Shown here: positions 3,936 through 57,431 of the stretch, in pieces
How positions within the stretch are numbered: position 1 is the stretch's first letter
How the letters are laid out: each line of letters starts with the position of its first letter
Assembly: GCA_946533675.1 (NCBI GenBank)
Contig: CAMNBZ010000003.1
Location: 33,014 to 97,013 of the forward strand
Direction: 5' to 3'
From: an uncultured Verrucomicrobiota bacterium
GTDB lineage: Bacteria; Verrucomicrobiota; Kiritimatiellia; RFP12; UBA1067
Length of the DNA stretch: 64,000 nt
Made by a program: the position numbers and the translations under genes
Notes under the pieces: generated by a model
Told to the model about the DNA's origin: nothing
The model's input: only the letters and a program-made list of their open reading frames with translations
Database searches by the model: none

Positions 3936-4943
3936 ATGAAAAAAGCACTCATCACCGGCATCACGGGCCAGGACGGCTCCTATCTCGCGGAACTGCTGCT
4001 CGCCAAGGGCTACGAGGTCCACGGCCTCATCCGCCGCGCGTCGACGTTCAACACCGGCCGCATCGAGCACCTCTACCAGGATCCGCACATCAACGGGCGC
4101 ACGCTCTTCCTCCACTACGGCGACATGGGCGACAGCTCGAACCTGATCCGCCTCGTCTACGAGATCGCGCCGGACGAGATCTACAACCTCGCGGCGCAGA
4201 GCCACGTGCGCGTGTCGTTCGATTCGCCCGAGTTCACGGGCGACGTGGACGCGCTCGGCGCGATGCGGCTCCTGGAGGCGATCCACCTGACGGGCCGCGC
4301 CGGCAAGACGCGCTTCTACCAGGCGTCGACCTCGGAGCTCTTCGGTCTCGTGCAGGAAGTGCCGCAGAAGGAGACGACGCCGTTCTATCCGCGCAGCCCC
4401 TACGCCGTCGCCAAGCTCTACGCGTACTGGGCCGTGCGCAACTACCGCGAGGCGTACAGCGTCTTCGCGTCGAACGGCATCCTCTTCAACCACGAGTCGC
4501 CCCGCCGCGGCGAGACGTTCGTGACGCGCAAGATCACGCGCGCCGTCGGCCGCATCAAGATGGGGCTGCAGGACAAGCTCTACATGGGCAACATCAATTC
4601 GCTGCGCGACTGGGGCTTCGCGGGCGACTACGTGGAGGGCATGTGGCGCATCCTCCAGCACGAGCGTCCCGAGGACTTCGTGCTCGCGACGGGCGAGATG
4701 CATTCCGTCAAGGAGTTCCTCAAGCTCGCGTTCGGGATGGTCGATCTCGACTGGGAGAAGTACGTCGCGTACGACGCGCGCTACATCCGCCCGACGGAAG
4801 TGGACCAGCTCCTCGGCGACGCGACGAAGGCGCGCACCGAGCTCGGCTGGGAGCCGAAGGTCAAGTTCCCCGAGCTCGTCAAGATGATGGTCGAGGCCGA
4901 CCTCGCGCTCGCGGAGAAGGAACTGAAGCTCAAGAATGCGTAA
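3936..4943 (+). CDS. gmd: GDP-mannose 4,6-dehydratase
   Basis: [47 protein letters not shown]...[12 protein letters not shown]...[18 protein letters not shown] is the textbook Gmd SDR signature. Confidence 0.97.
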
Positions 4944-6127: not shown

Positions 6128-7738
6128 ATGAAAAAGCTGATGATGACGACAGTCGCAGCACTCGGTTTCGCCGCTCTGGCGCAGGCCGAAGTTCTGAACT
6201 CGACTGGGTTCGAAGACTACGTCAAAAATAATAATGATTTCGCGGTCAACACGAGTGATTCGGGCAGCCCCGATTCTGGTACGCAGTACTGGACAGGAAC
6301 GGGTGACTTCTCCCAGACCGTGCTGAAGACATACGGTGAGGATGTTGTTAAGCCGACGAATCTGCCGGACGATTTTGAAACCGCAGGCGACTACTTCCTG
6401 TCGGTCGATACGGGCAACGATGTGATGTACCGCAAGGCGGGCGCGGAGGCGGGCAGCGTCGACCTCAATCAAGGGGCGGTGTTCTTCGATGCCAATGTCA
6501 AGTTCACGGCGAGCGAGACGGATGTCGAGGCCTCGGACGGCGATAAGCTCCTCGTGTGGCTGAAGGGCGACGACACGAAGACCAACCTCGTTGTGACGGC
6601 GGGTCTTTACAATGCGCTCACGGGAGAGTATGATCCGACCAATTTCACCGTTGACGCCGTTGACGGTGATTATGCGGCTGATACCTGGTATCGCCTGACG
6701 GTCAAGGCTGCGGTTGACGACAACAAGCTCACCTATTTCAATGTCTACATTGATGGGGAACCGGTCAAGGCGACGGATAAGACGACCGATTTCTATAGCC
6801 TCGTTCAGACGGGTGTTAACAAGTATGTGATTGCCGAAGCGGGCTTCCAGGGCACGGGCGCGCTTGACAATGTGGTCTGGACGACGACCGATCCGTTCCC
6901 GCCGGTGGAGGTTGACGAGTTTACTGCAAGTGTGACGCTGGAACAGGTGCGTTTGGCGGGCAACGAGAATGATATTGTTGATGCATGGGCGCTTGAAGGC
7001 GAGGATAAAACGGGAACCTATGCTGCCACTGCGACTGTTGCGGTTGGTGACGATGCAAAGTTCGTCGTTCGCATGGTGAGTGCTTGGGATGTCACGGTGA
7101 CGGCGACGATTAACGGCGTCCAGGTTGATCAGGCGAACATTGTCAAGACGGATGGCGAGGGTGACGAAGAAGGTTCTTCCGTCTATACGATCACCATTGA
7201 CGGTTCAAAGTATGGTGACGGCGATACGGCTGCGTTGGTCATCACCATCACTGAAAACGAAGGCGGCGATGAGCCGGAAGATACAACCGAAATCAATGCA
7301 AATGGCACGGGCTATGTTGCGGACGAGGATGGCACCACTTACACCAAGGCCGCTGTTGAGGCGATGGTGACCGTGGTCGCGCCGAATGCCGACAGTCTGA
7401 GCAATGAGGCGAAGGCCGCGTACAATGCGTACTTCACCAAGACTGCGACCTACAATGCGGACACACATAAGTGGGAAGTGACCGCCGCGCTGAACGAGAC
7501 CGCGCTGAAAGCGGATGTCAAAGTTGCGGTTGAGGAGGCGCTGGCGGCCGTTGACGCGGGCGCGACAAGTGTGGCGCTTCCGGCCGGCTTCTACTACAAG
7601 GTCGAGAGCGGCAGCGCGCTGCCGATCGCGACGACCGCGACGGACGTCAGCACGGGCGCGAAGATCGAGGTCAAGGGCCTGACGAAAGCGGCGGGCTTCT
7701 TCAAGGTGAGCGTGGGCACGACGGAATTCGCTGAGTAA
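6128..7738 (+). CDS. secreted protein with N-terminal LamG/concanavalin-like jelly-roll and acidic T/D/E-rich C-terminal half
   Basis: The signal peptide is MKKLMMTTVAALGFAALAQA, preceded by a strong SD. The strand pattern is beta-sandwich-like (VFFDANVKFTA, KLLVWL, WYRLTV, FNVYIDGEPV, GALDNVVW). The C-terminal tail reads AAGFFKVSVGTTEFAE. The ORF-track start at 6041 (TTG) is upstream of the SD and is rejected. Confidence 0.85.
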   Translation: MKKLMMTTVAALGFAALAQAEVLNSTGFEDYVKNNNDFAVNTSDSGSPDSGTQYWTGTGDFSQTVLKTYGEDVVKPTNLPDDFETAGDYFLSVDTGNDVMYRKAGAEAGSVDLNQGAVFFDANVKFTASETDVEASDGDKLLVWLKGDDTKTNLVVTAGLYNALTGEYDPTNFTVDAVDGDYAADTWYRLTVKAAVDDNKLTYFNVYIDGEPVKATDKTTDFYSLVQTGVNKYVIAEAGFQGTGALDNVVWTTTDPFPPVEVDEFTASVTLEQVRLAGNENDIVDAWALEGEDKTGTYAATATVAVGDDAKFVVRMVSAWDVTVTATINGVQVDQANIVKTDGEGDEEGSSVYTITIDGSKYGDGDTAALVITITENEGGDEPEDTTEINANGTGYVADEDGTTYTKAAVEAMVTVVAPNADSLSNEAKAAYNAYFTKTATYNADTHKWEVTAALNETALKADVKVAVEEALAAVDAGATSVALPAGFYYKVESGSALPIATTATDVSTGAKIEVKGLTKAAGFFKVSVGTTEFAE

Positions 7739-7766
7739 GTCAGTGCGCGAAAAGCGCAGAAACGAG

Positions 7767-7800
7767 GAGCGCGGCAGAAATGCCGCGCTCTGCGTTTTTT
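7767..7800 (+). terminator. rho-independent terminator
   Basis: A 10-bp GC stem, GAGCGCGGCA (GAAA) TGCCGCGCTC, is followed by TGCG and TTTTTT at 7795-7800. It lies 29 nt after the stop codon. Confidence 0.8.
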
Positions 7801-7808
7801 GTGGAAAG

Positions 7809-8100
7809 GCTAGATAGTCTAGAACGAAACGGGGCGGTGGCCCCGTTCCTAATCTAGAACGCCCGCTGCGCGGGCTAACCTAGAGCGCGCGGCACGGCCG
7901 CGCTTGTCTAGAAAGTCTAGATTAGCTCGCGCAACGCGCGAGCGTTCTAGATTAGCCCGCACTCCGTGCGGGCGTTCTAGATTAGGGGCGGCACACTTGC
8001 CGCCCCGTTCTAGCCAGTCTAGCCAGCCGCCCCGTTCTAGCTTCTCTAGCTAGTCTAGCCAGTCGCCCCGTTCTAGCTTCTCTAGCCAGCCGCCCCTCTC
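7809..8100. repeat. CTAG-rich hairpin mosaic array A (BIME-like)
   Basis: About 16 CTAG tetramers are present. Six different 7-9 bp GC hairpins occur (for example AACGGGGC-GGTG-GCCCCGTT and GCCCGCAC-TCC-GTGCGGGC). They are separated by the 13-mer CTAATCTAGAACG in the left half and its reverse complement CGTTCTAGATTAG in the right half. The switch point is TCTAGAAAGTCTAGA at about 7908-7922. Confidence 0.85.
7818..8014. repeat. 197-bp direct repeat, copy 1 (partner 8920-9116)
   Basis: Hand alignment shows the same length and only two mismatches: A at 7827 versus G at 8929, and ACTCCGTG versus ACTTCGTG. Confidence 0.85.
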
Positions 8101-8133
8101 TCGCCGCGCGCGTAAGATTTCGAAAATTCCGGC

Positions 8134-8163
8134 TAGACAACCGCTCTTTCCCTGTGATATAAT
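8134..8163 (+). promoter_or_regulatory. promoter: TAGACA - 18 nt - (TGa)TATAAT, 6 nt upstream of the ATG at 8170 (leaderless)
   Basis: The extended -10 TGATATAAT is at 8155-8163. No SD precedes the ATG. Confidence 0.5.
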
Positions 8164-8169
8164 CAAACC

Positions 8170-8863
8170 ATGAAAGCAAGAAAAATATCGTGGAATCAGA
8201 CGGATTGGCGCAAATTATACTTCTATCAAAAAGCCGATGCCCTCTATCAGCTGACCGTCGCTTTCTGCCGCCGCTTTCTGCCCGCGCATGGCGACCGGAC
8301 GGTCGATCAAATGGTCCAGGCCGCGCGCTCCGGAAAGCAGAATATCGTCGAAGGTTATGCCGATGGCGTCACGTCCAGTGAAATCGCCATTAATCTCCTG
8401 AATGTCGCGCGCGGCAGCATCAAGGAGCTGAAGGAAGATTATCTCGATTATCTCAAGGCGCACGCACAAGCTGATGTGCTGGACGGCGCGCCATCCGCGC
8501 TATGCCAAAATGCTCGCGTTCTGCCGTGCGCACAATGCGCTGAAGGACTATGAACCGCTCTTCGGCAGATGCGATGATGAAACGCTGGCGAATTGCGCCA
8601 ATACGCTCTGCCACATGATCGACCGAATGATGGTGTCGCATATCCGCAAAATGCAGTCGGAATTTGTCGAGCTGGGCAGCGCGCGCGAGCAGATGCGTGA
8701 CGCGCGCCAGGAGCGGCGGCTGGAGCAGCGGGATGACGCGCGCGAAGCGCCGAAGCTGCGTATGCTGCTGGCGCAAAGGGACAGGGAGATCATGCTGCTG
8801 AATTTGGCAATCAACCGGCTGCGCGGCGAGATCAACGCGCTGAAAGCGCAGCAGGGTAGGTAG
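8170..8863 (+). pseudogene. four-helix-bundle protein (23S rRNA IVS protein family with suffix domain), split by a +1 frameshift near 8462-8473
   Basis: Frame 1 (8170-8553) gives YQKADALYQLTVAFCRRF...DRTVDQMVQAARSGKQNIVEGY...ARGSIKELKEDYLDYLKAHAQ. Frame 2 (from about 8465, ORF 8474-8863) continues the family pattern: KLMCWTARHPRYAKM...ETLANCANTLCHMIDRMM...KMQSEFVELGSAREQMRDARQERR. This could instead be a sequencing indel. Confidence 0.6.
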
Positions 8864-9170
8864 GCTAGAACGCCCGCTTCGCGGGCTAATCTAGAACGCT
8901 CGCACGGGGTGCGAGCTAATCTAGAACGGAACGGGGCGGTGGCCCCGTTCCTAATCTAGAACGCCCGCTGCGCGGGCTAACCTAGAGCGCGCGGCACGGC
9001 CGCGCTTGTCTAGAAAGTCTAGATTAGCTCGCGCAACGCGCGAGCGTTCTAGATTAGCCCGCACTTCGTGCGGGCGTTCTAGATTAGGGGCGGCACACTT
9101 GCCGCCCCGTTCTAGCTTCTTTAGCTTGCCGCCACGTTCTAGCTAGTCTAGCCAGCTGCCCCGTTCTAGC
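8864..9170. repeat. CTAG-rich hairpin mosaic array B (BIME-like)
   Basis: About 14 CTAG tetramers. The architecture matches array A, with two extra hairpin units at the 5' end. Confidence 0.85.
8920..9116. repeat. 197-bp direct repeat, copy 2 (partner 7818-8014)
   Basis: See copy 1. Confidence 0.85.
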
Positions 9171-9282
9171 ATCTCTTCTGCGCAAATCTAAATTTCCCGT
9201 TGCCTTTTCAGACCAGTTGTGATAAAGTGTTCAAAGACTGTTAACAGGGTAGCTGATAGCTTGTCAATAAGCCATCGGCAAC

Positions 9283-9360: not shown

Positions 9361-20944
<11,584 letters not shown>

Positions 20945-20961
<17 letters not shown>

Positions 20962-21310
20962 CAGATTTGCGGTGCTTGCCGCCGCCACCGTCCTCCTGAC
21001 GGGATGTCCGAAAGCGGAGAAGGAGCCCGAGCCGGAAACGACCCGGATGCAGGATCCCGTGTATGTCCAGAAGCTGGAGGTCGAGCGGGGCGAGCAGAAG
21101 CGCATCCAGGGCGATCTGGAGGCGGTGCGCCAGGCGCTGGAGGCGCTGAAGGCCGAGGACCCCGAGCTGACGGGGGACAAGGCGAAGGAGCTGGCGGCGC
21201 GCCGCGACGCGCTCCTGGAGGAATTCGGCGCAAGCCGCAAACGCGCGGCCGCGACGGTGCGCGAGCGCGTGCTGAAGGATTTAAACAATGAGAAGCAGAA
21301 GGGAGAATAA
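20945..21310 (+). CDS. small coiled-coil lipoprotein (121 aa)
   Basis: MKMPIDRFAVLAAATVLLTGC carries the lipobox L-T-G-C. The remainder is charged and heptad-like (LEAVRQALEALKAEDPEL...). The ATG overlaps the last 17 nt of giant gene 1, and the stop lies 4 nt before the giant gene 2 ATG. Confidence 0.6.
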
Positions 21311-21314
21311 GCCC

Positions 21315-24300
21315 ATGAAGATGAAACTGATGAAAGCACTCGTCCTGACCTTCGCCCTGGCGGCGGGGACGGCGGCACGCGCCGCCGGCGACCTGATCGA
21401 GATTCTGCCGTGCGACGCGACGGGCCAGACGCTCGCCGTGCCGGTCAGCTCGGTCGCGGATCCGATCGACTGCACCCCGCACTACTTCAAGCTGCGTCTC
21501 GTCAACCGCATCGGGTATTCGGCGTCGCAGCCGTGGGTGATGGTGCCGAAGGTGACGGGCGCGACCGACCCGCTGAAGATGTACGTCTACATCTCGGGCG
21601 AGCTGCGCGAGGCGGCGTACACCGGCACGACCGTTCCCAACGGCCTGACGACCGATTTCGTCTTCAGCTTCACGCCGCGTGCGGGCGATCTGGCGCTGCC
21701 GGTCGTGCTCGCGACCACGGCGGGCCGCGCGGACGTCTCGGGCCTCACCGAGGGGAGCATCGTCTACCGCCTGGCCAACGACCATCTCTGGGGCATCTAT
21801 CCGAACGGCGACACGACCCAGGACGAGGCCGTGCTGATCCTGAACGATTCGAACGAGGTGCATGCCTCGCGTCCCGAGGGCGGCGACTGGTCGAACGACT
21901 ACTCGCTCGCGGGCGCGGGCTTCTACGTGAAGGAGGTCGACTTCGACGCCAACGCGTACAGCGACACGGTCTGGCGTTCGATCAACTCGAACGACACGAC
22001 GTGCGTCAACACGGCGCTGCCGATGCTGAAGGTGAACAGCCCGGAGAACACGTCCTCGGCGTTCGTCTACGTGTGGACGAAGGATCCGGACGTGGTGGTC
22101 GTCGACGGCAACAGCGCGAGCATCGGCACCGAGTACGCGATCGACGGCACGGACGAGGACGGCCAGCCGCTCAAGACGAAGGGCCTCAAGATCCAGGTCG
22201 CGGCGAACAGCGACAGCAAGAGCTTCTACCTCAAGGCGCTGGGCGCGGTGGGCGCGACGACGACGCTCTTCATGGCGGACACGCCGACCAACATCTACTA
22301 CAACTCGGGCTCGGTGATCCCGAACTTCGTCACGCGCACGGTCCGCGTGGACGTGCCGAACCCGCCGGCCGCGAAGCTCTACTTCAACGGCGAGACGAGC
22401 ACGACGACGCTCGCGCTCGGCGCGGACGCGGACTACCAGACGACGAAGGCGACGGTGATGGTCGAGCTGAGCGAGGCGTACACCGCCGACGTCACGGTGA
22501 CGCTCGGCGCGAAGTACACCGACGCGACGGACGTGGACCTGGCCGCCAACGACTACATTTCGCTCTCGACGACGGACGGCACGGCGAGCTGGAGCCAGCC
22601 GGCCGCCCAGGTGACGATTCCGGCGGGCAGCACGATGGCGACGCTGTATCTCCACGTGCTGGGCGGCAGCTCGCAGACGAAGGACGGCATCATCCTGTCG
22701 GTCGCGTCGATCGACGGCGCGGGCGACCACTACGCGGCGGGCGCGCAGGCGACGCTGTCGATCAGCCCGACGACGCCGAAGATCGCGAACCCGGCGAACG
22801 GGGCTGTGTTCGAGGGCGCGCTCACGGGCGAATCGTTCCTCCTCGAGGATTTCCGCATCGACGATACGTACGCGAACCGCCTCAAGGGCACGACCGAGGG
22901 CTACACGGTCTTCTACAAGCGCACGTACGCGGCGGGCGGCGGCGACGCGAAGTTCCAGCAGGCGACGTTCACGAACGCGCTGGACGGCACGGCGAAGGAC
23001 ACGGCGAGCGTGCTCGGCCTCCGGCTCGCGAAGGCGGGCACGGCCACGGTGACGATGTACCTCCAGGCGCCGGACGGAACGAAGACGGCGACGGCGGACT
23101 ACGTGACGTTCACGGTCGAGGTCACCCAGTCGCCGCAGGTGACGGCGCAGGTGACGAGCGGCCTCAACGATGACGAGACGGCGAGCGAGGGCGCGACGCT
23201 CCAGGTCAAGTTCTTCCTGAGCGACGCCAACTCGGCGGACGGCAACCTCTACGCGTTCCTCGTGCCGGCGGACGAGGCGACGTCGAACAACGTGGACGTC
23301 TGCACCGCGCTCGCGGACAGCGGCCGGACGGGCGTCGAGATCCTGAACGGCGAGTCGGCCTCCCGGCTCTACGCGACGCTGAAGTTCAAGGACGGCTCGA
23401 CGATCGGCGATCTGATGACGTTCAACATCTTCCTGAGCGAGGACAAGACGCTCGGCGCGCCGGACTATGCGACTTATCCCGACTACGGCTACAAGACGTA
23501 CGACGGCTACGCGGACGGCTCGCTGATGATCTACGTCGTCAACGAGATTCCGAAGGTCGCGCTCGTGCAGATCAACGGCGTCGACGGCACGTCGATCGAC
23601 GGCGACATCGTCGAGGACGTCCAGACGTCGCAGGGCATCGAGTGCAAATTCGCGACGGTGGTGACCGAGCCGTCGGCGACGGACCTCACCGCGGCGGACG
23701 GCAAGGAATTCCTCGTGCAGTACACCTTCTACGACGGCACGTCGCTGCCGCAGGTGCGCACGGTCCCCGGCAACCCGAACGCGCTGACCGACGGCGTCTA
23801 CTCGACGGTGACGAACTTCACCTTCCAGTCGGCGGGCACCAACAAGGTGACGGTCGCGCTGAAGGACAAGGACATGGACGCCTACGGCGACAAGTTCACG
23901 TTCTACGTCATCGTCAACGCGACGCCCGGCGTGGAGATCACCTCGGGCCGCATGGACGCCTCGGCGGTCTATCCCGAGGACGAGACCGGCGCAATCAACG
24001 CGCCCCTCTCCGTGAGGCTCACCGCGACGCCCAACGACGCGCTGGAGATCGGTCTCAAGGTCGATCACGCGGTCGCGAGCGACACCTTCGCGCTGCCGAC
24101 GCTGAACCTGCCGGTCGAGAACCGCGAGATCACGCCCGGCGTCTTCGCGGACGTGTACGTGGTCACCTTCAACGCGGGCTACCGCAACCCGGCGCAGAAC
24201 ATCTACTTCACCGCGATCGACGGCACGGGCAACTCGGAGATCAACGGCGTGACGATCACCCCGTACGTGCTGACCGACACCGAATCGCCGTACGCGGGCA

Positions 24301-27300
24301 AGACGTACCGGGAGCTCTACACCAACCTCGTGCCCTTCACGATGTATCCGCAGGGCGTCGACCCCGTCATCGTGACGCCGTCGGAGGCGAGCGAGGTCAT
24401 GACGAACAAGACGTCGATCGGCGTCGACAACATCGTCAACTGGGCGGTGCGCGACATCGCGGGCGACTTCGCGCCGCCCGCGACGGTCGCGATCACGGTC
24501 GAGGGCGTGACGACGGTCATCTCCAACAACATCGACATCGCCGGCGGCAGCATCCGCGCGGTGAGCGGCTCCCACAAGTTCCAGTTTGACTCGACGGGCC
24601 CGAAGACGGTCATCCTGACGGTGACGGACAAGGACGGCAGGCCGGCCACGCGCACGATCCTCTACATGATCGATCCGTCGAAGAACGTCATCGTCTACCC
24701 GCACGGCGCGAACCGCTCGAACGTCTCGTCGATCTCCTCGCCCTACGTCAACGCGCAGGGCCTCGGCACCGGCTACGTGTGGCAGGACGGCACGCTCGTC
24801 GGCGACAACACGAAGAAGTTCACGAACCGCCGCGCGCTGTCGTTCGGCGTGACGGCGACCTCGGCGACGTTCGCCGGCATGGGCGACATGACCGGCTGGC
24901 TCGGCAACGGCGCCGCGAGCACGCTCGCGTACGACAGCTACCTCTACGGCTGGATCGTGACGGCGGGCGGCGAGGCGACGTTCACCGGCTACAGCCCGCA
25001 CTACGGCACGTACGCGGACTACGCGGCGGCGTTCGCCGACGCGGACAACTACGCGGCGACGGTGACGCTGCCGAGCGCCGACGAGTTCGACGAGACGGCC
25101 AACGCCTACGCCGACCGCTTCCTGGAGGCGATCTTCTCGCGCGAATGGCGCGCGGCGGACAACATGGGCGACATCAACGCCGACGGCGTGCCGGACTTCT
25201 TCGCCGTGGCGAAGAGCTACGCGAACGGCACGGTCCAGGAGGCGGACGGCACCGGCGCCGAGGCGCGCACGCAGATCGACACGCTGAACGACGACCTCGA
25301 CTTCCTGCCCGGGCGCATCGCCGTGCCGCTCGCACCCTCCACGTGGAGCGGCGACGACGGCAGTCCGTTCACCGCGCGGCTGGAGGTCCGCGGTTCCCAC
25401 AACGGCCTGAACTACGGCATGTTCCGCGCCGACAAGAAGGAGGCCGCCGACGGCTGGATCTCCGATCTCGACCTGAGCCTGGCCGAAAAGCTCTACCTCG
25501 TCAGCCACGCGCAGGCGAACGCGGGCGCGGCGCTGGCCGACGCGCTCCTGGCGACGCTGCCGGCGAACTACGTCGCCGGCGATCTGGCGGACGGCTGGCT
25601 GACGCCGACCAACGCGACGGAGCAGGCGGCGGCGAAAGCCTACATCGACTGGACCTGGAGCGGCTACGAAGAGGGCGATGCGCCCGCGAAGTGGGGCTTC
25701 ACGGTCGAGAACCGCACCGATCCGACGAGCGACGACACCGACGGCGACGGCCTGCCCGACGGCTATGAATACGCGCTGTGGTACGCGGCGACCGTCGGCA
25801 GCGTCGACGCGACCGGCAATCGCACGACGATCACCGGCACGCGGTTCGACCTTTCCGACATCGAAAGCACCGACGACGTCATCACGTCCGCCGACATCGC
25901 CGCGATCTACAACCCGAACGCATACCGGAAGTCGGCCGAGCAGGACACGGACAACGACGGCCTCTTCGATCTCGAGGAAATGCTGATCGGCACGAGCCCG
26001 ATCCACTGGGACACCGACAGCGACGGCCTGAGCGACCTCTACGAGGTGCTGTACAACCTCAATCCGCTGAAGGCGGCGACGGACAACAATACGCCCGACG
26101 GCGAGACCAACCACGACGGCGACTTCATGGCGCGCGCCTCCACGACGGCCGCCTACATGATCGTCGAGTCGGCGACGGGCGAGCTCTGGGCCTTCTCGAC
26201 CTACACGTACAGCGATGACGGAACGGCGGCGATCCTCACCGGCACCGGCTTCCCGGTCGCGCGGTTCAACGGCGGCTACATCCCGCGGACGCTCTACGTC
26301 ACCGAAGAGCTGATGACGCAGGCGGCGACGCTCACGTTCGAGACCGGCACGACGCTCGATTCGCACAGCGTCATATTCTCGACGCTCGACCTCTACCACG
26401 CCCAGGTCTACTGGTACAAGGGCTTCGATCCGCGCACCGGCTGGTACGTGAACGGCAGCAACGGGTCGCTGTCCACGACGAAGCGCTGGCTGAAGAACAA
26501 CGCGCCGATTCCGGGCGGTACGCCCGTCGACACGGCGGCCTACACCGCGCACGACGAGTACCTGCTCCTCAAGTTCCGCCAGATCACCGGCATGACGGTC
26601 CGCGCGGACCAGAAGCACACGATCCAGGGGTACATCACGCTCAACTGCACCAACCCGAGCGCCGAGACGGAGGCGGGCGCGACGATCGGCGACGGCACCA
26701 AGGAGTACGGTGCGTGCGGCAACGGCGCGGACACCGATTCCGACGGCGTGCCGGACGGCTGGGAACTGTACATCGGCGTCGATCCGCAGATCGACTTCCG
26801 CATCCCGAAGTCGAGCAGCGGCCACGACCCGCTCTACTGGGACGGGTACACGGACGGCTACGGGAACCTCATCGCGGCGATCGGCGACAATTCGGCCTAC
26901 GATGACGGCCTGACGCTCGTGGGCGAATACGCCGGCACCGATTCGACGCTCGCGTTCGCCGGCTGCGAAAGCATCTACGCGAACCATCCGTCGCAGGCGG
27001 GCAGCGTCCACGTCAACTGGTTCAACAAGTTCTTCCCGACCGATCCGCGCCAGATCGACACGGACGGCGACGGCATCAACGACGGCGCCGAGGGCACCTC
27101 CTGGAGCGAACTCTTCACGATGAACCGCTGGGGCCAGCGCGCGGCGACCAGCACGCTGGAGTACAAGGAGATCACCCACAACTTCATCTACGGTTCGCCG
27201 TCCGACAACGGCTCGCTCTGCATCCGCGGCGGCGGCCTGAACCCGACCTGCCTCGATACGGACGGCGACGGCCTGCCCGACCCGTGGGAACGCCAGTACG

Positions 27301-39357: not shown

Positions 39358-39402
39358 GATTCTAGAAGTCTAGAAACCGAGAAGCCGAGAAACCGAGAAA
39401 GG
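39358..39402. repeat. mini CTAG element plus (CCGAGA)x3 between pta and the isomerase gene
   Basis: TCTAGAAGTCTAGAAA mimics the centre of the large arrays (TCTAGAAAGTCTAGA). It is followed by GAAACCGAGAAGCCGAGAAACCGAGAAAGG. Confidence 0.6.
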
Positions 39403-54324: not shown

Positions 54325-57261
54325 ATGGATATCATCATCAAGAATGCCCGTGTGCACAACCTCCAGGGCATCGACGTCACCATCCCGCGCAATTCACTGA
54401 CCGTCGTGACGGGGCTTTCCGGCTCGGGCAAGTCCTCGCTCGCGTTCGACACGCTCTATGCGGAAGGGCAGCGCCGCTATGTCGAATCGCTTTCCGCCTA
54501 CGCGCGCCAGTTCCTCGACCGCATCGAAAAGCCGGATGTCGAAAAGATCGAGGGCCTGTCGCCCGCCATTTCCATCGAGCAGCACACGACGAGCGGCAAT
54601 CCGCGCTCCATCGTCGCGACGGTGACGGAGATTCACGACTACCTGCGCATTCTCTACGGCTCGGTCGCGACGGCGCACTGCCCGCACTGCGGCCGGCCCG
54701 TGACGAAGCAGTCCGCCGAGCAGATCGTCGATGCGCTCCTCAAGCGCCCCGGCAAGGTGATTCTTCTCGCGCCCGTCGTAAAGGGCAAGAAGGGCCGCCA
54801 CGAGGAGACGTTCGCCGCGCTCACGCGCAACGGCTTTGCGCGCGTGCGCATCGACGGGACGATGTATCCGCTCGACGAGCTGCCGGAACTGGACAAGAAG
54901 AAGGCGCACAACATCGAGGTCGTCGTCGACCGCCTCGTCATCCCGGCCCCAGCGGAAGATCCGTCGTCGAACGCGGAGCGGAGCAAGTCGCAGGCGAGCG
55001 ACGCGGAGCGTTCGACCTCCGCATCCGCCGCTTTCCGCACGCGCCTGACCGATTCGGTGGAATTGGCGCTCAAGACCGGCCACGGCATTCTGGTCGTCGA
55101 GCGGCTGGAGGAAGAAAGCGGATCGTCTGACGCGCAGCCGGAATCAGGAATTTTGTCTGACGCGGAGCGGAGCGAGTCGCAGGCGAGCGACGCGGAGCGT
55201 CAGACCACCTATTCCGAACTCAACGCCTGCGTCGACTGCGGCATCTCCTTCGACGAGCTCAAGCCGCGCGCCTTCTCGTTCAACTCGCCGTTCGGCGCGT
55301 GCCCGACGTGCGCGGGCCTCGGCCAGCTCTACTATTTCGACGAAGACCTCGTCGTGCCGGACAAGACGCTGCCGCTCGAAGAGGCGATCCATCCGTGGCG
55401 GCGGCTCGGCGGCCAGATGGCGATCCTCTACCACAAGGAGCTCCTGTCCGAGATCGCGCGTCAGAGCGGCGTCGATCTGCGCACGCCCTACAACAAGCTG
55501 CCCGCGAAGTTCCGCCACGACCTGATGCACGGCTTCAAGACCAATCTCGTCCTCAGCTGGCGGCGCGTGGACCGTCCGTTCGAGGGCGTCCTCGCCGCGC
55601 TCAAGCGCAAGATGGAGGAGGCGACGGACGACGAGGTGCGCGCGAAGTACGAGGCGTACCAGAATTTCCGCACGTGCCCCGACTGCCACGGCGCGCGCCT
55701 GAGGCCCGAATCGCGCGCGGCGACGGTGGCGGGCCGGACGATCGTCGAGGTGATGGCGATGCCGGTCGGCGCGGCGCTCGCCTTTTTCAACGGCCTGCCC
55801 GACTTCCCGGGGATGCGCGAAATCCTCAAGGAGATCCGCCGCCGCCTCCAGTTCCTGCTCGACGTGGGGCTCGACTACCTGACGCTCGACCGCGCCTCGG
55901 CGACGCTGTCGGGCGGCGAGATGCAGCGCATCCGCCTCGCGACGCAGATCGGCTCGGGGCTGACGGGCGTGCTCTACGTCCTCGACGAGCCGACGATCGG
56001 GCTGCATCCGCGCGACAACGAGCGGCTGATCGCGACGCTGAAGGGGCTGCGCGACCGCGGCAACACGGTCGTCATCGTCGAGCACGACGAGGAGATGATG
56101 CGCGCGGCGGACTACATCGTGGACCTGGGGCCGGGCGCGGGGCGCGAAGGCGGCCGGGTGATGTACCAGGGCGACTTCAAGGGCCTCAAGAAGGCGAAGT
56201 CGCTCACGGCCGACTACCTGACGGGCCGCAAGAAGGTCGTGGCGGGGGATCGTGGAGACGGTCGAACGGCGTTCGACCGATTCCTCGTCCTCTCCGGCTG
56301 CACGGAGCACAACCTGAAGAATATCACCGTCCGCATTCCCGTCGGCGCGTTCACGGTCGTGACGGGCGTCTCGGGCTCGGGCAAGTCGACGCTCATCGAC
56401 GAGACGCTCAAGCGCGCGCTGATGCGCGAATTCTACCACGCCAAGGCGGTGCCGGGCAAGTTCAAGAAGCTCACCGGCATCGACAACTTCGACAAGGTGA
56501 TCGAGATCGACCAGTCGCCGATCGGCCGCACGCCGCGCTCGAACCCCGCGACGTACGTCGGCTTCTTCTCGGAGATCCGCGACCTCTTCGCCAAAACCGA
56601 GGCGGCGCGCGCGCGCGGCTACACGGCGGGGCGCTTCTCGTTCAACGTGAAGGGCGGGCGGTGCGAGGTCTGCGGCGGCGACGGCCTCAAGAAGCTGGAG
56701 ATGAGCTTCCTGCCGGACGTGTACGTGACGTGCGAGCAGTGCGGCGGCAAGCGGTTCAACGCCGAGACGCTGGAGGTGACGTACGGCGGAAAGAACATCG
56801 CCGAGGTGCTGGAGATGACGGTCGCGGAGGCGGCGGAGTTCTTCGCGAAGGTGCCGAATCTCCGGCGCAAGCTCCAGACGCTCGTGGACGTGGGGCTCGG
56901 CTACATCGCGCTCGGCCAGTCGGCGACGACGCTCTCGGGCGGCGAGGCGCAGCGCATCAAGCTCGCGACGGAGCTGTCGCGGCGCGCGACGGGGCGCACC
57001 CTGTACCTCCTCGACGAGCCGACGACGGGCCTTCACTTCGACGACATCGCGAAGCTGATGAAGCTCCTCGCGCAGCTGCGCGACGCGGGCAACACGGTCG
57101 TCGTGATCGAGCACAACACCGACGTGATGAAGTGCGCGGACTGGATCATCGACCTCGGGCCGGGCGGCGGCGACGCGGGCGGCGAGCTCGTGTGCGAAGG
57201 GCCGCCCGCGAAGATCGCCGCGTGCGCGCGTTCGGTGACCGGCCGGTTTCTGGGGGTCTAG
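54325..57261 (+). CDS. uvrA: excinuclease ABC subunit A, carrying two in-frame repeat insertions
   Basis: VTGLSGSGKSSLAFDTLYAEGQRRYVESLSAYARQFL and LSGGEMQRIRLATQIGSGLTGVLYVLDEPTIGLH are present. So are VTGVSGSGKSTLI, two zinc modules (C-x2-C), and LSGGEAQRIKLATEL...LYLLDEPTTGLHF. Confidence 0.98.
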   Translation: MDIIIKNARVHNLQGIDVTIPRNSLTVVTGLSGSGKSSLAFDTLYAEGQRRYVESLSAYARQFLDRIEKPDVEKIEGLSPAISIEQHTTSGNPRSIVATVTEIHDYLRILYGSVATAHCPHCGRPVTKQSAEQIVDALLKRPGKVILLAPVVKGKKGRHEETFAALTRNGFARVRIDGTMYPLDELPELDKKKAHNIEVVVDRLVIPAPAEDPSSNAERSKSQASDAERSTSASAAFRTRLTDSVELALKTGHGILVVERLEEESGSSDAQPESGILSDAERSESQASDAERQTTYSELNACVDCGISFDELKPRAFSFNSPFGACPTCAGLGQLYYFDEDLVVPDKTLPLEEAIHPWRRLGGQMAILYHKELLSEIARQSGVDLRTPYNKLPAKFRHDLMHGFKTNLVLSWRRVDRPFEGVLAALKRKMEEATDDEVRAKYEAYQNFRTCPDCHGARLRPESRAATVAGRTIVEVMAMPVGAALAFFNGLPDFPGMREILKEIRRRLQFLLDVGLDYLTLDRASATLSGGEMQRIRLATQIGSGLTGVLYVLDEPTIGLHPRDNERLIATLKGLRDRGNTVVIVEHDEEMMRAADYIVDLGPGAGREGGRVMYQGDFKGLKKAKSLTADYLTGRKKVVAGDRGDGRTAFDRFLVLSGCTEHNLKNITVRIPVGAFTVVTGVSGSGKSTLIDETLKRALMREFYHAKAVPGKFKKLTGIDNFDKVIEIDQSPIGRTPRSNPATYVGFFSEIRDLFAKTEAARARGYTAGRFSFNVKGGRCEVCGGDGLKKLEMSFLPDVYVTCEQCGGKRFNAETLEVTYGGKNIAEVLEMTVAEAAEFFAKVPNLRRKLQTLVDVGLGYIALGQSATTLSGGEAQRIKLATELSRRATGRTLYLLDEPTTGLHFDDIAKLMKLLAQLRDAGNTVVVIEHNTDVMKCADWIIDLGPGGGDAGGELVCEGPPAKIAACARSVTGRFLGV
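54967..55015 (+). repeat. palindrome-ended element 1 inserted in frame in uvrA
   Basis: TCGAACGC ...GGAGCGGAGCAAGTCGCAGGCGAGCGACGCGGA... GCGTTCGA. It encodes SNAERSKSQASDAERS. Confidence 0.75.
55155..55205 (+). repeat. palindrome-ended element 2 inserted in frame in uvrA
   Basis: GTCTGACGC ...GGAGCGGAGCGAGTCGCAGGCGAGCGACGCGGA... GCGTCAGAC. It encodes SDAERSESQASDAERQ. The core is near-identical to element 1. Confidence 0.75.
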
Positions 57262-57370
57262 GGGGCTAGAACTCTAGGCCTCTAGGACTCTAGAATTCTA
57301 GAATAGCGCGGCTTGCCGCGCGGTCTAGAACAGCGAGCGTAGCGAGCGGTCTAGGATTCTAGAATTCTAG
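57258..57370. repeat. CTAG-rich array C downstream of uvrA
   Basis: About 10 CTAG tetramers occur in ~113 bp (TCTAGG, CTAGAA, TCTAGAATTCTAGA). The hairpin GCGCGGC-TTG-CCGCGC and the direct repeat AGCGAGCG-T-AGCGAGCG are also present. The array starts at the uvrA stop codon. Confidence 0.8.
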
Positions 57371-57391
57371 GAGCCGGGAAGCGCCGATTTT

Positions 57392-57400
57392 TGATATACT
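57392..57400 (+). promoter_or_regulatory. extended -10 box TGATATACT (with upstream T-tract) for recA
   Basis: The context is GATTTTTGATATACT, 31 nt upstream of the recA ATG. An AAGGG SD-like sequence is at about 57419-57424. Confidence 0.5.
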
Positions 57401-57431
57401 ATGCAATCATTGACACGCAAAGGGTAGCATC

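Follow-up and report, generated by a model that had tools for sequence, protein, structure and literature searches.

Paired CTAG-linked hairpin arrays around a four-helix-bundle suffix gene in a Kiritimatiellae genome: candidate boundaries and recombination substrates for a gene cassette

The window, meaning the whole 64-kb stretch of DNA analysed here, comes from the metagenome-assembled genome (MAG) of an uncultured member of the Kiritimatiellae. It contains a locus in which a surface-protein gene, its intrinsic terminator, a tandem array (array L), a gene of the four-helix-bundle suffix family, a second array (array R) and a giant gene for a Gly-rich protein follow one another (Table 1). 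The same order is found in L011–L015, L049, L050 and L052. Array L begins 9 nt past the terminator, the sequence of which is conserved in L002, L006–L010, L027, L049 and L052. A promoter-like site stands between this array and the four-helix-bundle gene; it ends 6 nt ahead of the ATG and shares part of its −35 hexamer with a CTAG. Array R is followed by a homologous TGTGATAAAGT box. An Rfam scan of the window at gathering threshold returned one tRNA and nothing else.

Table 1. Coordinates of the arrays, neighbouring features and further CTAG clusters in the window
Feature	Position	Strand	Remarks
Intrinsic terminator	7766..7800	+	11-bp GC stem and T-run; belongs to the upstream surface-protein gene
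Array L, hairpin part	7809..8006	.	3 forward units, centre, 3 reverse units
Array L stem-loops	7828-47, 7861-75, 7887-7903, 7925-43, 7955-73, 7985-8006		6, perfect GC
Array L centre	7907-7921		orientation switch TCTAGAAAGTCTAGA
Array L tail	8006..8100	.	~3 direct repeats of 27 nt (GCCGCCCCGTTCTAGC[C/T]...), CTAGs 9 bp apart, no hairpins
Promoter-like site	8134..8163	+	TAGACA-18-TG-n-TATAAT, 11/12 match, TG extension
Four-helix-bundle suffix gene	8170..8863	+	N-terminal PF05635/TIGR02436 domain and TIGR04258 suffix
Array R, hairpin part	8864..9108	.	5 forward units, centre, 3 reverse units
Array R stem-loops	8872-86, 8898-8916, 8928-51, 8963-77, 8989-9005, 9027-45, 9057-75, 9087-9108		8, perfect GC
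Array R centre	9009-9023		orientation switch TCTAGAAAGTCTAGA
Array R tail	9108..9176	.	27-nt repeats, then conserved region upstream of the 3866-aa Gly-rich protein gene
TGTGATAAAGT box	9218-9228		homologous to the box at the promoter-like site
Giant gene	ATG 9361		3866-aa Gly-rich protein; region downstream of array R conserved in L002, L013, L049, L052
13-mer CTAATCTAGAACG	7849, 8886, 8916, 8951	+	sequence scan
13-mer CTAATCTAGAACG	7943, 7973, 9045, 9075	-	sequence scan
Inverted repeat enclosing the gene	left arm 7916..7960, right arm 8881-8925		45 nt, 91% complementary
Small cluster, pta to SIS/CBS gene	39358..39402	+	TTCTAGAAGTCTAGAA, then 8-bp GAGAARCC repeats; no 13-mer, no hairpin
Cluster, uvrA to recA	57258..57370	+	ten CTAGs, mostly 8-bp period (AGAATTCT-type boxes); no 13-mer
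CTAGs outside the clusters	3905, 61443, 8133		3905 in the stop codon of a gene; 8133 adjoins array L

The bracketed gene is frameshifted in the window by a 4-nt GCAC duplication at about 8461–8464, and is intact in relatives, where it encodes 228–238 aa (P0049 is 98% identical). The window gene scores above the cutoffs for TIGR02436 (33.4 against 24) and TIGR04258 (41.9 against 40), while its PF05635 match (E 1.9e-7, 31.7 bits) lies below the gathering score of 33.8 in this truncated frame. An AlphaFold model predicts a four-helix bundle, with structural matches to 2GSC and 2RLD, and a C-terminal helix of 65 residues. Profile matches to designed coiled coils cover residues 191–218, and a conserved basic segment, GGIRERMTAARLGRRQTQNE, stands before the coiled coil. 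A sequence search of the PDB with the suffix protein returned coiled-coil peptides only, the PADLOC defence models gave no match to it, and searches with Pfam, NCBIfam and PADLOC detected no DNA-binding domain, whether ribbon-helix-helix (RHH) or HTH. The gene has a GC3 of 0.79, compared with about 0.95 in host genes. Genes of the PF05635 type are very common: a word-based search gave at least 7,933 homologues at E ≤ 1e-10 among the 8,000 candidates listed. To our knowledge, no role has been assigned to these ‘four-helix-bundle’ genes other than that of the DGR accessory protein Avd.

The 13-mer CTAATCTAGAACG occurs eight times in exact form in the window, four times on each strand, and is confined to arrays L and R; by chance, none would be expected. 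As the first-pass annotation had described, it lies in one half of each array and its reverse complement in the other, with the switch at TCTAGAAAGTCTAGA, and a recount gave the same 16 CTAGs in array L (7809–8100) and 14 in array R (8864–9170). In array L the forward unit reads CTAG-AAC-[hairpin]-TAAT-CTAG and the reverse unit CTAG-ATTA-[hairpin]-GTT-CTAG. About eight distinct stem sequences share one identical linker, TAATCTAGAAC, and CTAGs within the hairpin arrays are spaced 26–35 bp apart. The description of each array as a chain of distinct GC stem-loops holds for the hairpin parts, but not for the 3′ ~90 nt (8006–8100 and 9108–9170), which consist of 27-nt direct repeats. The two arrays are direct duplicates of one another: 7809–8083 aligns to 8911–9176 (with 8911–9137 duplicating 7809–8035), only two positions differ between 7826–8010 and 8928–9112, and identity in the core is 99%. 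An inverted repeat also encloses the gene, and the promoter-like site is located inward of its left arm.

CTAG had been regarded as essentially confined to intergenic clusters. This is correct as a description, since 42 of the 45 CTAGs in the window fall into four such clusters, but it does not reveal an anomaly of the genes: these contain 3 CTAGs, compared with 3.1 ± 1.6 expected from a synonymous-codon shuffle. The scarcity of CTAG in window genes is explained by codon usage, and CTAG-specific restriction or RNase avoidance can be rejected as the cause of the confinement. What is anomalous is the density outside genes, where 1869 nt of non-coding sequence contain 42 CTAGs. The locus is a cautionary example: at a GC3 near 0.95, codon usage by itself can produce the pattern of ‘CTAG confined to intergenic DNA’. 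In lower-GC relatives, avoidance beyond codon usage is seen (observed against expected, 0 against 4.8 in L056 and 1 against 11.6 in phage L124).

The clusters after pta and uvrA were originally listed as smaller members of the same family. Both lack the 13-mer, and with their 8-bp-period TCTAGRA boxes they belong to the same broad class as the arrays, not to the same family. The uvrA/recA cluster has a single GC hairpin, GCGCGGC-TT-GCCGCGC, and its first CTAG includes the TAG stop of uvrA. A LexA/SOS box was considered for this cluster and rejected, as the remaining clusters adjoin non-SOS genes; we know of no LexA motif that fits it. A role as all-frame stop-codon ‘bumpers’ was also rejected as not general, because an 8-bp period places stops in all frames and a 9-bp period in only one.

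A pattern of two linkers was scanned against 185,579 GTDB species genomes and against JGI metagenomes. It was found at one syntenic locus in the GTDB genomes and on one syntenic JGI contig, in a sample of MAGs with contigs that often break at the arrays, and in these scans the 13-mer array locus is limited to related Kiritimatiellae. The remaining matches to the 11-mer pattern (GTDB, JGI and viral) come from unrelated taxa; they are plain tandem repeats and have no four-helix-bundle gene in their vicinity. The first-pass annotation had anticipated a dispersed family and had named restriction of the 13-mer to this locus as grounds for abandoning that idea; a single locus is what mapping in the window, GTDB and JGI returned.

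At this locus the arrays vary strongly between strains. Before the centre or tail, L050 has 3 forward A/B/C-type units, L049 and L027 have 9 each, and the window has 2 in array L and 4 in array R. L050 contains one A-B-C block and L049 three, all forward, while the nine forward units of L027 follow an irregular order of A, B and C and are joined by one D unit before the centre. Units are found in either orientation across alleles. The arrays therefore behave as a minisatellite (VNTR), with units duplicated, lost and inverted between strains, and the two copies within one genome stay nearly identical even though alleles vary from strain to strain. In L002 there is only one array and the gene is absent, and in L011 and L012 the 3′ end of the gene is duplicated in inverted orientation across an array. 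In L007 and L009 an unrelated element of ~360 bp is inserted exactly inside a linker, after CTAATCTA.

Each array is predicted to fold into a long interrupted stem bearing side hairpins, as had been proposed. The predicted RNA folds have energies of −212 kcal/mol (z −11.1) for array L and −211 kcal/mol (z −14.7) for array R, and the predicted DNA fold of array R has a z-score of −12.9. Rfam searches of the arrays, at gathering threshold and in permissive mode, gave only generic long-hairpin (miRNA-precursor) noise. Between alleles, 40% of loop sites differ, compared with 4.5% of stem sites and 7.9% of linker sites, so that loops diverge about 9-fold faster than stems; loops vary even among copies of one stem type inside a single array. 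Two of the eight stem pairs carry two-sided compensatory changes, all pairs (100%) are standard, and none of 500 shuffles reached the observed covariation score. The fold probably matters, because hairpins of variable length are always joined by the same 11–13-nt linker and because stems stay paired via compensatory changes. The window hairpins contain no G-U pairs, and a constraint at the level of DNA therefore fits at least as well as one at the level of RNA. For an array from Bacteroidales, the predicted sense RNA (−152 kcal/mol) has 23 G-U pairs and the antisense RNA (−114 kcal/mol) none, and the z-scores of the two are similar after allowing for composition.

CTAG arrays also adjoin homologues of the gene elsewhere, where they have a simple 9-bp period, as seen in Bacteroidales MAGs, in a type I restriction-modification (R-M) operon and in Prevotella nigrescens; the loci bearing on this association were picked for carrying the gene. 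In L039 four CTAGs at 9-bp spacing stand immediately upstream of the gene, L041 has a 9-bp-period array with a homologue, and L059 has both inside the type I R-M operon. L055–L058 have 20–27 CTAGs upstream of the gene (27 in L056, 21 in L057 and 20 in L058) and 19–28 downstream. In cultured P. nigrescens, the sole four CTAGs of 8.6 kb are located 47 bp 3′ of the gene. An identical protein, P0113, occurs with the same arrays next to differing left-flank genes, and homology begins ~20 nt before the first CTAG. The left flank of the Bacteroidales locus L056 is unlike that of L057 and L058. SR/SS-periodic N-terminal extensions, in 18 of 119 homologue gene calls, look as translated CTAG arrays would be expected to look. 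On the best reading of these sequences, the arrays belong to a CTAG-centred, short-period tandem class that Kiritimatiellae and Bacteroidales of rumen and gut carry between their genes, and this class would regularly abut the four-helix-bundle-suffix family in at least two phyla. The wider class accompanying the family, the mutual duplication of the two arrays and their bracketing of the gene all go beyond what was first noted at this locus. Literature searches on CTAG arrays, Kiritimatiellae repeats, TIGR02436 and the IVS protein returned nothing relevant, and no description of the array–gene association was found in them; a paper on the haloarchaeal plasmid pL6 deals with nothing beyond ordinary CTAG avoidance.

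Not all CTAG arrays accompany the gene family. The window has them at pta/SIS and uvrA/recA, phage L124 has them between its genes, and L019 has them as well. Related lineages bear several further kinds of intergenic short tandem repeats (L019). Among viral contigs, at least 119 matches to 9-bp-period CTAG arrays were set aside, being almost all unrelated and apparently coding repeats in AT-rich genomes where CTAG is not rare. No homologue of the gene was found by tblastn in these viral matches, and a resemblance to the present arrays is limited to L124 and L135.

We tentatively favour, at somewhat less than an even chance, the reading that the arrays are hairpin-forming boundary and recombination arrays flanking a four-helix-bundle-suffix gene cassette. 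At the window locus, CTAG boxes (TAATCTAGAAC) would have become separated by GC palindromes. The folded form would be what matters, a long interrupted stem with side hairpins adopted by the transcript, by extruded DNA or by single-stranded DNA, and such structured boundaries may act as a termination, RNA-processing or insulation element. The direct-repeat arrays would also be substrates for homologous recombination by which the gene is gained or lost. Intervening sequences (IVSs) in 23S rRNA genes of Leptospira and Coxiella carry an open reading frame of PF05635, the ‘23S rRNA-intervening sequence protein’ family. They share with the window locus the protein family, complementary flanks able to form a long stem and a gene present as an optional insert, and the boundary role would be analogous to that of the complementary flanks which let an IVS be cut out by RNase III. 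The window locus differs in lying outside rRNA genes (the only Rfam match being the tRNA) between protein-coding genes, in having as flanks whole self-complementary arrays that double as a pair of direct repeats, and in a gene with an extra suffix domain and coiled coil. Several points count against this cassette-boundary reading. Array L, placed between a strong terminator and the promoter-like site of the gene, may be little transcribed; forward-only arrays (the left array of L049, the upstream array of L056 and phage L124) cannot form long hairpins alone; and some CTAG arrays stand away from the gene family.

An unlikely alternative is that a DNA-binding protein recognises the arrays, which would then resemble an operator or plasmid centromere, with TCTAGA/CTAGA boxes coated by a protein that is possibly the suffix protein itself. 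RHH proteins bind contiguous 7–8-bp repeats, direct and inverted, as in the omega heptads of pSM19035, the MetJ metboxes and ParG/parH of TP228; in the metboxes, tandem 8-mers create a CTAG at every junction. Contiguous 7–9-bp boxes, direct and inverted, beside promoters are shared with the present class, including the 8-bp CTAG period of the uvrA/recA cluster. The occurrence of CTAG boxes at 8- and 9-bp periods in both orientations beside promoter-like sites, the flanking of the gene by arrays in all contexts examined, the predicted bundle with its basic segment and heptad coiled coil, and the pairing of the divergent C-terminal region of the window-type protein with a divergent, hairpin-bearing array type are all consistent with such binding. 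Fixed-period contiguous boxes are present in 57258–57370 (8 bp) and in L039, L041 and L055–59 (9 bp). Against such binding, they are absent from the hairpin arrays, where the spacing of 26–35 bp, with hairpins between, is poor for cooperative duplex binding. One cooperative binder is unlikely to suit both periods, no RHH gene was identified and no DNA-binding domain was detected by the searches above, the co-variation of protein type and array type is a single case, and conservation of the GC stems is left unexplained.

Somewhat more doubtful is the proposal that the gene and one array excise as a circle between the direct-repeat arrays and re-integrate into any CTAG array, which would account for how the gene family has reached different loci and phyla. 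The presence/absence polymorphism at one locus, the ~275-bp direct repeats, the changing left flanks of P0113, the inverted duplications in L011 and L012, the ‘empty’ CTAG arrays at other intergenic sites, the low GC3 of the gene and its close homologues in two phyla all argue for mobility. However, there is no associated recombinase or transposase, and arrays of different loci have only a CTAG(A) core in common, leaving short homology. The gene is kept at the locus in most strains, the single-array allele may be a plain deletion, and neither a circular form nor a target duplication was observed. Integron cassettes likewise combine a promoter-proximal small gene, structured, variable and imperfectly palindromic boundaries and presence/absence polymorphism, whereas the flanks here are long tandem arrays and not one attC hairpin of 57–141 nt; no integron integrase was found among the window proteins scanned, and the linker CTAGAAC/GTTCTAG misfits the RYYYAAC/GTTRRRY core.

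Improbable, in our view, is a purely neutral origin, in which slippage-prone quasi-palindromic DNA expands without function in tolerated intergenic space, template-switch ‘correction’ keeping stems perfect and concerted evolution keeping linkers uniform. The strong variation in copy number and unit order, the 99% identity of the window copies while strain alleles differ, and the further repeat kinds of L019 suit this account, as do the perfect Watson–Crick stems predicted by a DNA-level mechanism. Yet the arrays persist at the same position across strains with 40% loop divergence and recur beside the same gene family in two phyla, and the variation of loops among same-type stems in one array means that homogenisation alone is insufficient for stem conservation. 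Pneumococcal BOX elements are modular, dispersed and present in more than 100 copies. BOX elements and VNTRs share with the arrays a modular structure, unit numbers that vary between strains and stable predicted structures; unlike BOX elements, the arrays are bound to their locus and to a single gene family. In marine Beggiatoaceae, abundant intergenic TAACTGA direct repeats occur at many loci, and a regulatory role has been proposed for them (PMC4679880). They too are lineage-specific short-motif arrays confined to intergenic regions, but differ in motif and period, and no link to a four-helix-bundle gene is evident in the abstract of that report (PMC4679880).

The likeness to REP/BIME elements suggested by the first-pass annotation did not survive, and it is now very improbable that a RAYT (TnpA-REP) transposase mobilises these sequences as dispersed palindromic elements. 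Shared features are intergenic GC-rich hairpins, mosaics with short linker motifs and very stable predicted RNA or DNA structures; the tetranucleotide beside each hairpin loosely recalls GTAG-tagged REPs (PMC3733652), and the element in L007 and L009 is inserted exactly in a linker. REPs, however, consist of a conserved palindrome in tens to hundreds of dispersed copies, with alternating orientation, variable linkers and a cognate RAYT. In the window arrays it is the linker that is conserved, among differing palindromes; units keep one orientation throughout each half-array, and the window, GTDB and JGI scans place the family at a single locus; no Pfam match to Y1_Tnp/RAYT was found among the 23 window proteins scanned. 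The arrays are further distinguished from a CRISPR array (repeats of at least 23 nt, non-palindromic spacers) by a constant element of 11–13 nt and by ‘spacers’ that are all palindromic and come from a small common repertoire. No cas genes were found among the window proteins scanned. An assembly artefact can practically be dismissed: the source of the window is a MAG, and in relatives the contigs often end within the array, but the same architecture, with allelic differences, recurs in independent NCBI, ENA, JGI and Logan assemblies.

A bolder form of the cassette idea, which we consider speculative and rather unlikely, is that the suffix protein, with its Avd/IVS-protein-like bundle, basic stretch and coiled coil, recognises its own flanking CTAG arrays, so that gene and arrays would form a self-contained cassette moving from one CTAG array to another, both inside a genome and from genome to genome, in at least two phyla. 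If true, this would be a previously unrecognised mobile gene–repeat module, and it would explain the spread and tolerance of the related ORF-bearing IVSs of 23S rRNA. For uncultured rumen Kiritimatiellae, the arrays provide a hypervariable marker beside two giant surface-protein genes. More broadly, a repeat signature linked to one subfamily offers a handle on the origin of PF05635 genes inside rRNA genes, R-M operons and intergenic gaps; it suggests cis-sites for binding, processing or recombination, and may serve as a simple sequence criterion for recognising cassette boundaries.

Arrays L and R, two CTAG-rich GC-hairpin arrays of about 300 bp, flank a gene cassette as direct repeats of one another: 7809-8083 aligns to 8911-9176, and the hairpin cores (7826-8010 and 8928-9112) differ at just two positions. 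Neither the duplication nor the bracketed gene formed part of the first-pass annotation. The gene matches PF05635/TIGR02436 ('23S rRNA-intervening sequence protein', a four-helix bundle) over its N-terminal half and TIGR04258, the 'four helix bundle suffix' domain, over its second half. A 4-nt GCAC tandem duplication (GCACGCAC, 8455-8470, near 8461) breaks the gene into two frames; minus these 4 nt it encodes 229 aa, with 98% identity to P0049, an intact homologue from other samples. The frameshift reflects either a pseudogene or a MAG consensus error. Over 8474-8863, the gene's second reading frame, GC3 is 0.79, whereas most genes of the window have 0.91-0.98, which suggests a foreign origin. 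A TGTGATAAAGT box related to the gene's promoter-like site is found after array R, and the duplicated segment therefore seems to comprise array, tail and box.

Upstream of array L lies a surface-protein gene (6128-7738) encoding a signal peptide. This protein is hypervariable (39-70% identity between strains); nevertheless the terminator and the array's beginning are nearly identical, and the neighbouring genes keep their length and order. Array R lies ~190 bp upstream of the first of two consecutive giant ORFs, which contains glycine-rich repeats (Pfam Gly_rich_2, precomputed annotation).

Features of the cassette and of arrays elsewhere (window coordinates unless a fetched locus, L001-L030, is named)
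Feature	Position	Composition or remark
Canonical terminator	7766-7800	5' of array L
Array L	7809-8100	3 forward + 3 reverse hairpins; 16 CTAGs
Strong promoter-like site	8134-8163	TAGACA-18-TGnTATAAT; ends 6 nt before the gene's ATG
Four-helix-bundle-suffix gene	8170-8863	between arrays L and R
Array R	8864-9170	5 forward + 3 reverse hairpins; 14 CTAGs
First giant ORF	9361-20961	3866 aa
Second giant ORF	21288-37073	5261 aa
Forward unit		CTAG-AAC-(perfect GC stem 6-10 bp, loop 3-4 nt)-TAAT-CTAG
Reverse unit		CTAG-ATTA-(hairpin)-GTT-CTAG; reverse complement of forward unit
Hairpin type A		GGAACGGGGC
Hairpin type B		GCCCGC
Hairpin type B'		GCCCGCAC
Hairpin type C		GCTCGCGC
Hairpin type C'		GCTCGCAC
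Hairpin type D		GCGCGGC
Hairpin type E		GGGGCGGCA
Hairpin type E'		GGGGCGGGGC
L019 composite arrays	1650-1690, 4339-4570, 7395-7553, 9826-9960	
ATCTAGAACG-core plain arrays	L025 14-102; L026 4080-4143; L020 4963-5011 / L001 2757-2808; L024; L029; L030	

The first-pass annotation had described CTAG-rich arrays with a 13-mer in both orientations, and the 13-mer CTAATCTAGAACG indeed has exactly eight copies in the window, four per strand, all within the two arrays; none would be expected by chance. When the arrays were cut at each CTAG to define their true unit, distinct GC stem-loops were recovered, with the linker inverted in the 3' half and the switch, or centre, at TCTAGAAAGTCTAGA, as had been proposed. 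The description as hairpin chains holds for the hairpin parts; each array then closes with a hairpin-free tail of ~90 nt made up of 27-nt direct repeats. Folding prediction supports the suggested long interrupted stem: each array is predicted to form a single such stem bearing side hairpins, with RNA energies of -212 kcal/mol (z -11.1) for array L and -211 kcal/mol (z -14.7) for array R, and a DNA z of -12.9 for array R.

The reading as a dispersed, REP/BIME-like family did not survive. The family was sought as two linkers in the same orientation, spaced 10-30 nt; this pattern gave one relevant match among 185,579 GTDB species genomes, one in JGI metagenomes and none in viral contigs, and both matches represent the same locus, 3' of the same surface-protein gene as in the window. 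The arrays differ from REP/BIME elements in copy number, in the part that is conserved and in orientation; nor do they qualify as a CRISPR array, an integron cassette or an rRNA IVS. A syntenic contig was found in 'Kiritimatiellae bacterium RGIG4421', and further loci were reached by homology to the bracketed gene or to the surface protein encoded upstream. As far as assemblies show, the 13-mer/hairpin family is limited to one locus of one lineage, the very outcome that the first-pass annotation had named as refuting its reading, with the qualification that relatives' contigs often stop within the array and additional copies are possible in unassembled regions.

Among these relatives, L011-L015, L049, L050 and L052 keep the window's order: the surface protein and its terminator come first, then the four-helix-bundle-suffix gene with an array on either side, then the giant Gly-rich protein gene. 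L002 has a single array and no four-helix-bundle-suffix gene. About eight hairpin types recur, in strain-dependent count and order. L050 has a single A-B-C block 5' of the gene, L049 three A-B-C blocks, all forward and without a centre, and L027 nine forward units (A, B and C in irregular order) and one D unit, followed by the centre. In L011 (925-1172) and L012 (1000-1170) the gene's 3' end reappears inverted beyond the downstream array. This second copy differs at a few positions, which points to genuine duplication and inversion across the array, not to an assembly wrongly folded back on itself. In L007 (11724-12213) and L009 (2950-3021) the array is interrupted exactly within a linker, after GGGCTAATCTA. 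The L007 insert (~363 bp) begins with a hairpin-rich 92 nt, directly repeated behind it, and includes a ~270-nt segment that is 98% identical in L006 (7794-8066), where the array is broken elsewhere, in hairpin D. Inserts of this type do not occur in the window and match nothing in Rfam; they may be non-autonomous mobile elements that target the linker. Some strains (L006 5163-5555, L049 9387-9668, L050 1039-1320) have a small gene of the PDDEXK_3 family, lacking in the window, between the genes for mannose-1-phosphate guanylyltransferase and the surface protein.

Between alleles, aligned sites differ at 40% in loops, 4.5% in stems and 7.9% in linkers. In twelve distinct 34-nt units, 96 of 96 stem cells are standard pairs, and two of the eight stem pairs show two-sided change (U-A/C-G; A-U/G-C), G-U or one-sided intermediates being absent; no shuffle matched the observed covariation score. 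The stems are constrained to pair. Since unit number and order vary by strain and pairing is conserved, the arrays behave as a minisatellite in which pairing and linker sequence are maintained, loops drift and the two copies within one genome are homogenised; they qualify as a structured minisatellite.

Distant homologues of the bracketed gene (55-67% identity), inspected in their own contexts, show that CTAG arrays accompany this gene family beyond the window. In L039 four CTAGs, 9 bp apart and the only ones in 6.7 kb, lie 30 nt 5' of the gene; in L041 a 9-bp CTAG array lies at its start, with others close by. Four loci (L055-L058) encode an identical protein, P0113, with 20-27 CTAGs upstream at a 9-bp period (GCTAGAYTR) and 19-28 downstream (GCTAGAnGG, then TCTAGCTTT in the opposite orientation). 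Copy number varies by sample, and the left-flank gene of L056 differs from that of L057 and L058; ribosomal protein S16 of L056 is identical to that of 'Bacteroidales bacterium' MAGs. In L059 (8040-15209) the gene is found within a type I R-M operon, flanked by hsdM and hsdS; 9-bp CTAG arrays precede hsdM, lie at the 3' end of the gene and follow hsdR. The cultured, complete Prevotella nigrescens FDAARGOS_1486 has four CTAGs 9 bp apart, the only ones in 8.6 kb (48% GC), 47 bp 3' of a 'four helix bundle suffix domain-containing protein' gene. Of 119 homologue gene calls, 18 start with SR/SS-periodic extensions such as SRGSRDSRE, the expected in-frame translation of a TCTAGR 9-mer array. A CTAG array lies within about 100 bp of the gene in every independent context inspected, across two phyla, the loci having been chosen via the gene.

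The link is not exclusive, as CTAG arrays also occur away from the gene family. In the phage-like contig L124 (648-9527; IMG/VR UViG 3300045988_139881), five successive gaps between same-strand ORFs carry arrays of 4-8 CTAGs, mostly 9 bp apart (GCTAGAYGG), holding 33 of the contig's 34 CTAGs; L135 is a viral contig of the same kind. Composite intergenic arrays in the metagenomic contig L019 (GC 0.53) run from AATGCRYA 8-mers through TCTAGAANR 9-mers to CTATTAA 7-mers; this one contig thus combines several kinds of short tandem repeat between its genes. Plain tandem arrays of 11-14-bp units with the linker core ATCTAGAACG were seen in unrelated metagenomic contigs (GC 0.57-0.62), one from a Luminiphilus MAG (Gammaproteobacteria), with no four-helix-bundle gene nearby; the L026 unit GAATCTAGAAC is one base different from TAATCTAGAAC. 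Recurrence of this core may partly be a selection effect of the search pattern.

Besides those of arrays L and R, the 45 CTAGs of the window comprise two at 39362/39370, ten at 57258-57367 and three others, at 8133 (beside array L), 3905 (stop codon of a response-regulator gene) and 61443. The reported confinement of CTAG to intergenic clusters stands as a count, with 42 within 1869 nt in four of twelve intergenic segments, but not as an anomaly of the genes: GC3 is near 0.95, and a synonymous-codon shuffle of the 53.9 kb of coding sequence predicts 3.1 +/- 1.6 CTAGs where 3 are seen, so their absence needs no special explanation. In lower-GC relatives, avoidance exceeds the codon-usage expectation; genes of the Bacteroidales locus L056 have 0 against 4.8 expected (P = 0.003), and those of L124 have 1 against 11.6. 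Within the window, CTAG arrays apart from the gene family occupy the pta/SIS-CBS and uvrA/recA gaps. The uvrA-recA spacer (57258-57431) holds its ten CTAGs, mainly at an 8-bp period, in palindromic AGAATTCT boxes, identical to MetJ metboxes (AGACGTCT) except for the two bases at the centre; upstream of recA, where TGATATACT resembles a -10 site, the final boxes adjoin the corresponding -35 region. Past pta, the two CTAG boxes give way at once to an 8-bp repeat, AGAAACCG/AGAAGCCG (39372-39400), whose 3.6 copies end within the likely ribosome-binding site of the following gene.

On the likeliest reading, the folded form of the array would be what matters, because hairpins of 13-24 nt share a constant linker of 11-13 nt and regularity appears only after folding. 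Each array would then fold into a long stem bounding the cassette, serving as a termination, processing or insulation element. A parallel may be drawn with the complementary flanks of ORF-bearing 23S rRNA IVSs, as arms at 7916-7960 and 8881-8925 enclose the gene in the same way. A Bacteroidales array hints at RNA-level pairing (sense -152 kcal/mol with 23 G-U pairs, antisense -114 with none, z-scores similar). An RNA role for the window arrays is harder to reconcile with the complete absence of G-U pairs from their stems, the position of array L between terminator and promoter-like site, and the existence of forward-only arrays. The main alternatives, which are not mutually exclusive, are that the arrays bind protein, possibly the cassette's own product, that they are recombination landing pads of a mobile cassette, or that they arise by neutral slippage and quasipalindrome correction.

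Conservation across the four-helix-bundle-suffix family is high, many residues being invariant. In the AlphaFold model (mean pLDDT 83) a four-helix bundle is accompanied by two short helices and, at the C-terminus, one helix of 65 residues; the C-terminus matches designed coiled coils and follows a conserved basic segment. The best Foldseek matches in the PDB are 2GSC and 2RLD, structural genomics entries of the 'S23 ribosomal protein'/IVS-protein family, and defence-system models gave no match. A putative role in nucleic acid binding is plausible.

No description of CTAG-periodic arrays around four-helix-bundle-suffix genes was found in the literature; the arrays would be an undescribed form of structured intergenic repeat array, itself a familiar type of element. 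A less likely reading is that CTAG arrays at these genes mark a new gene-repeat module.
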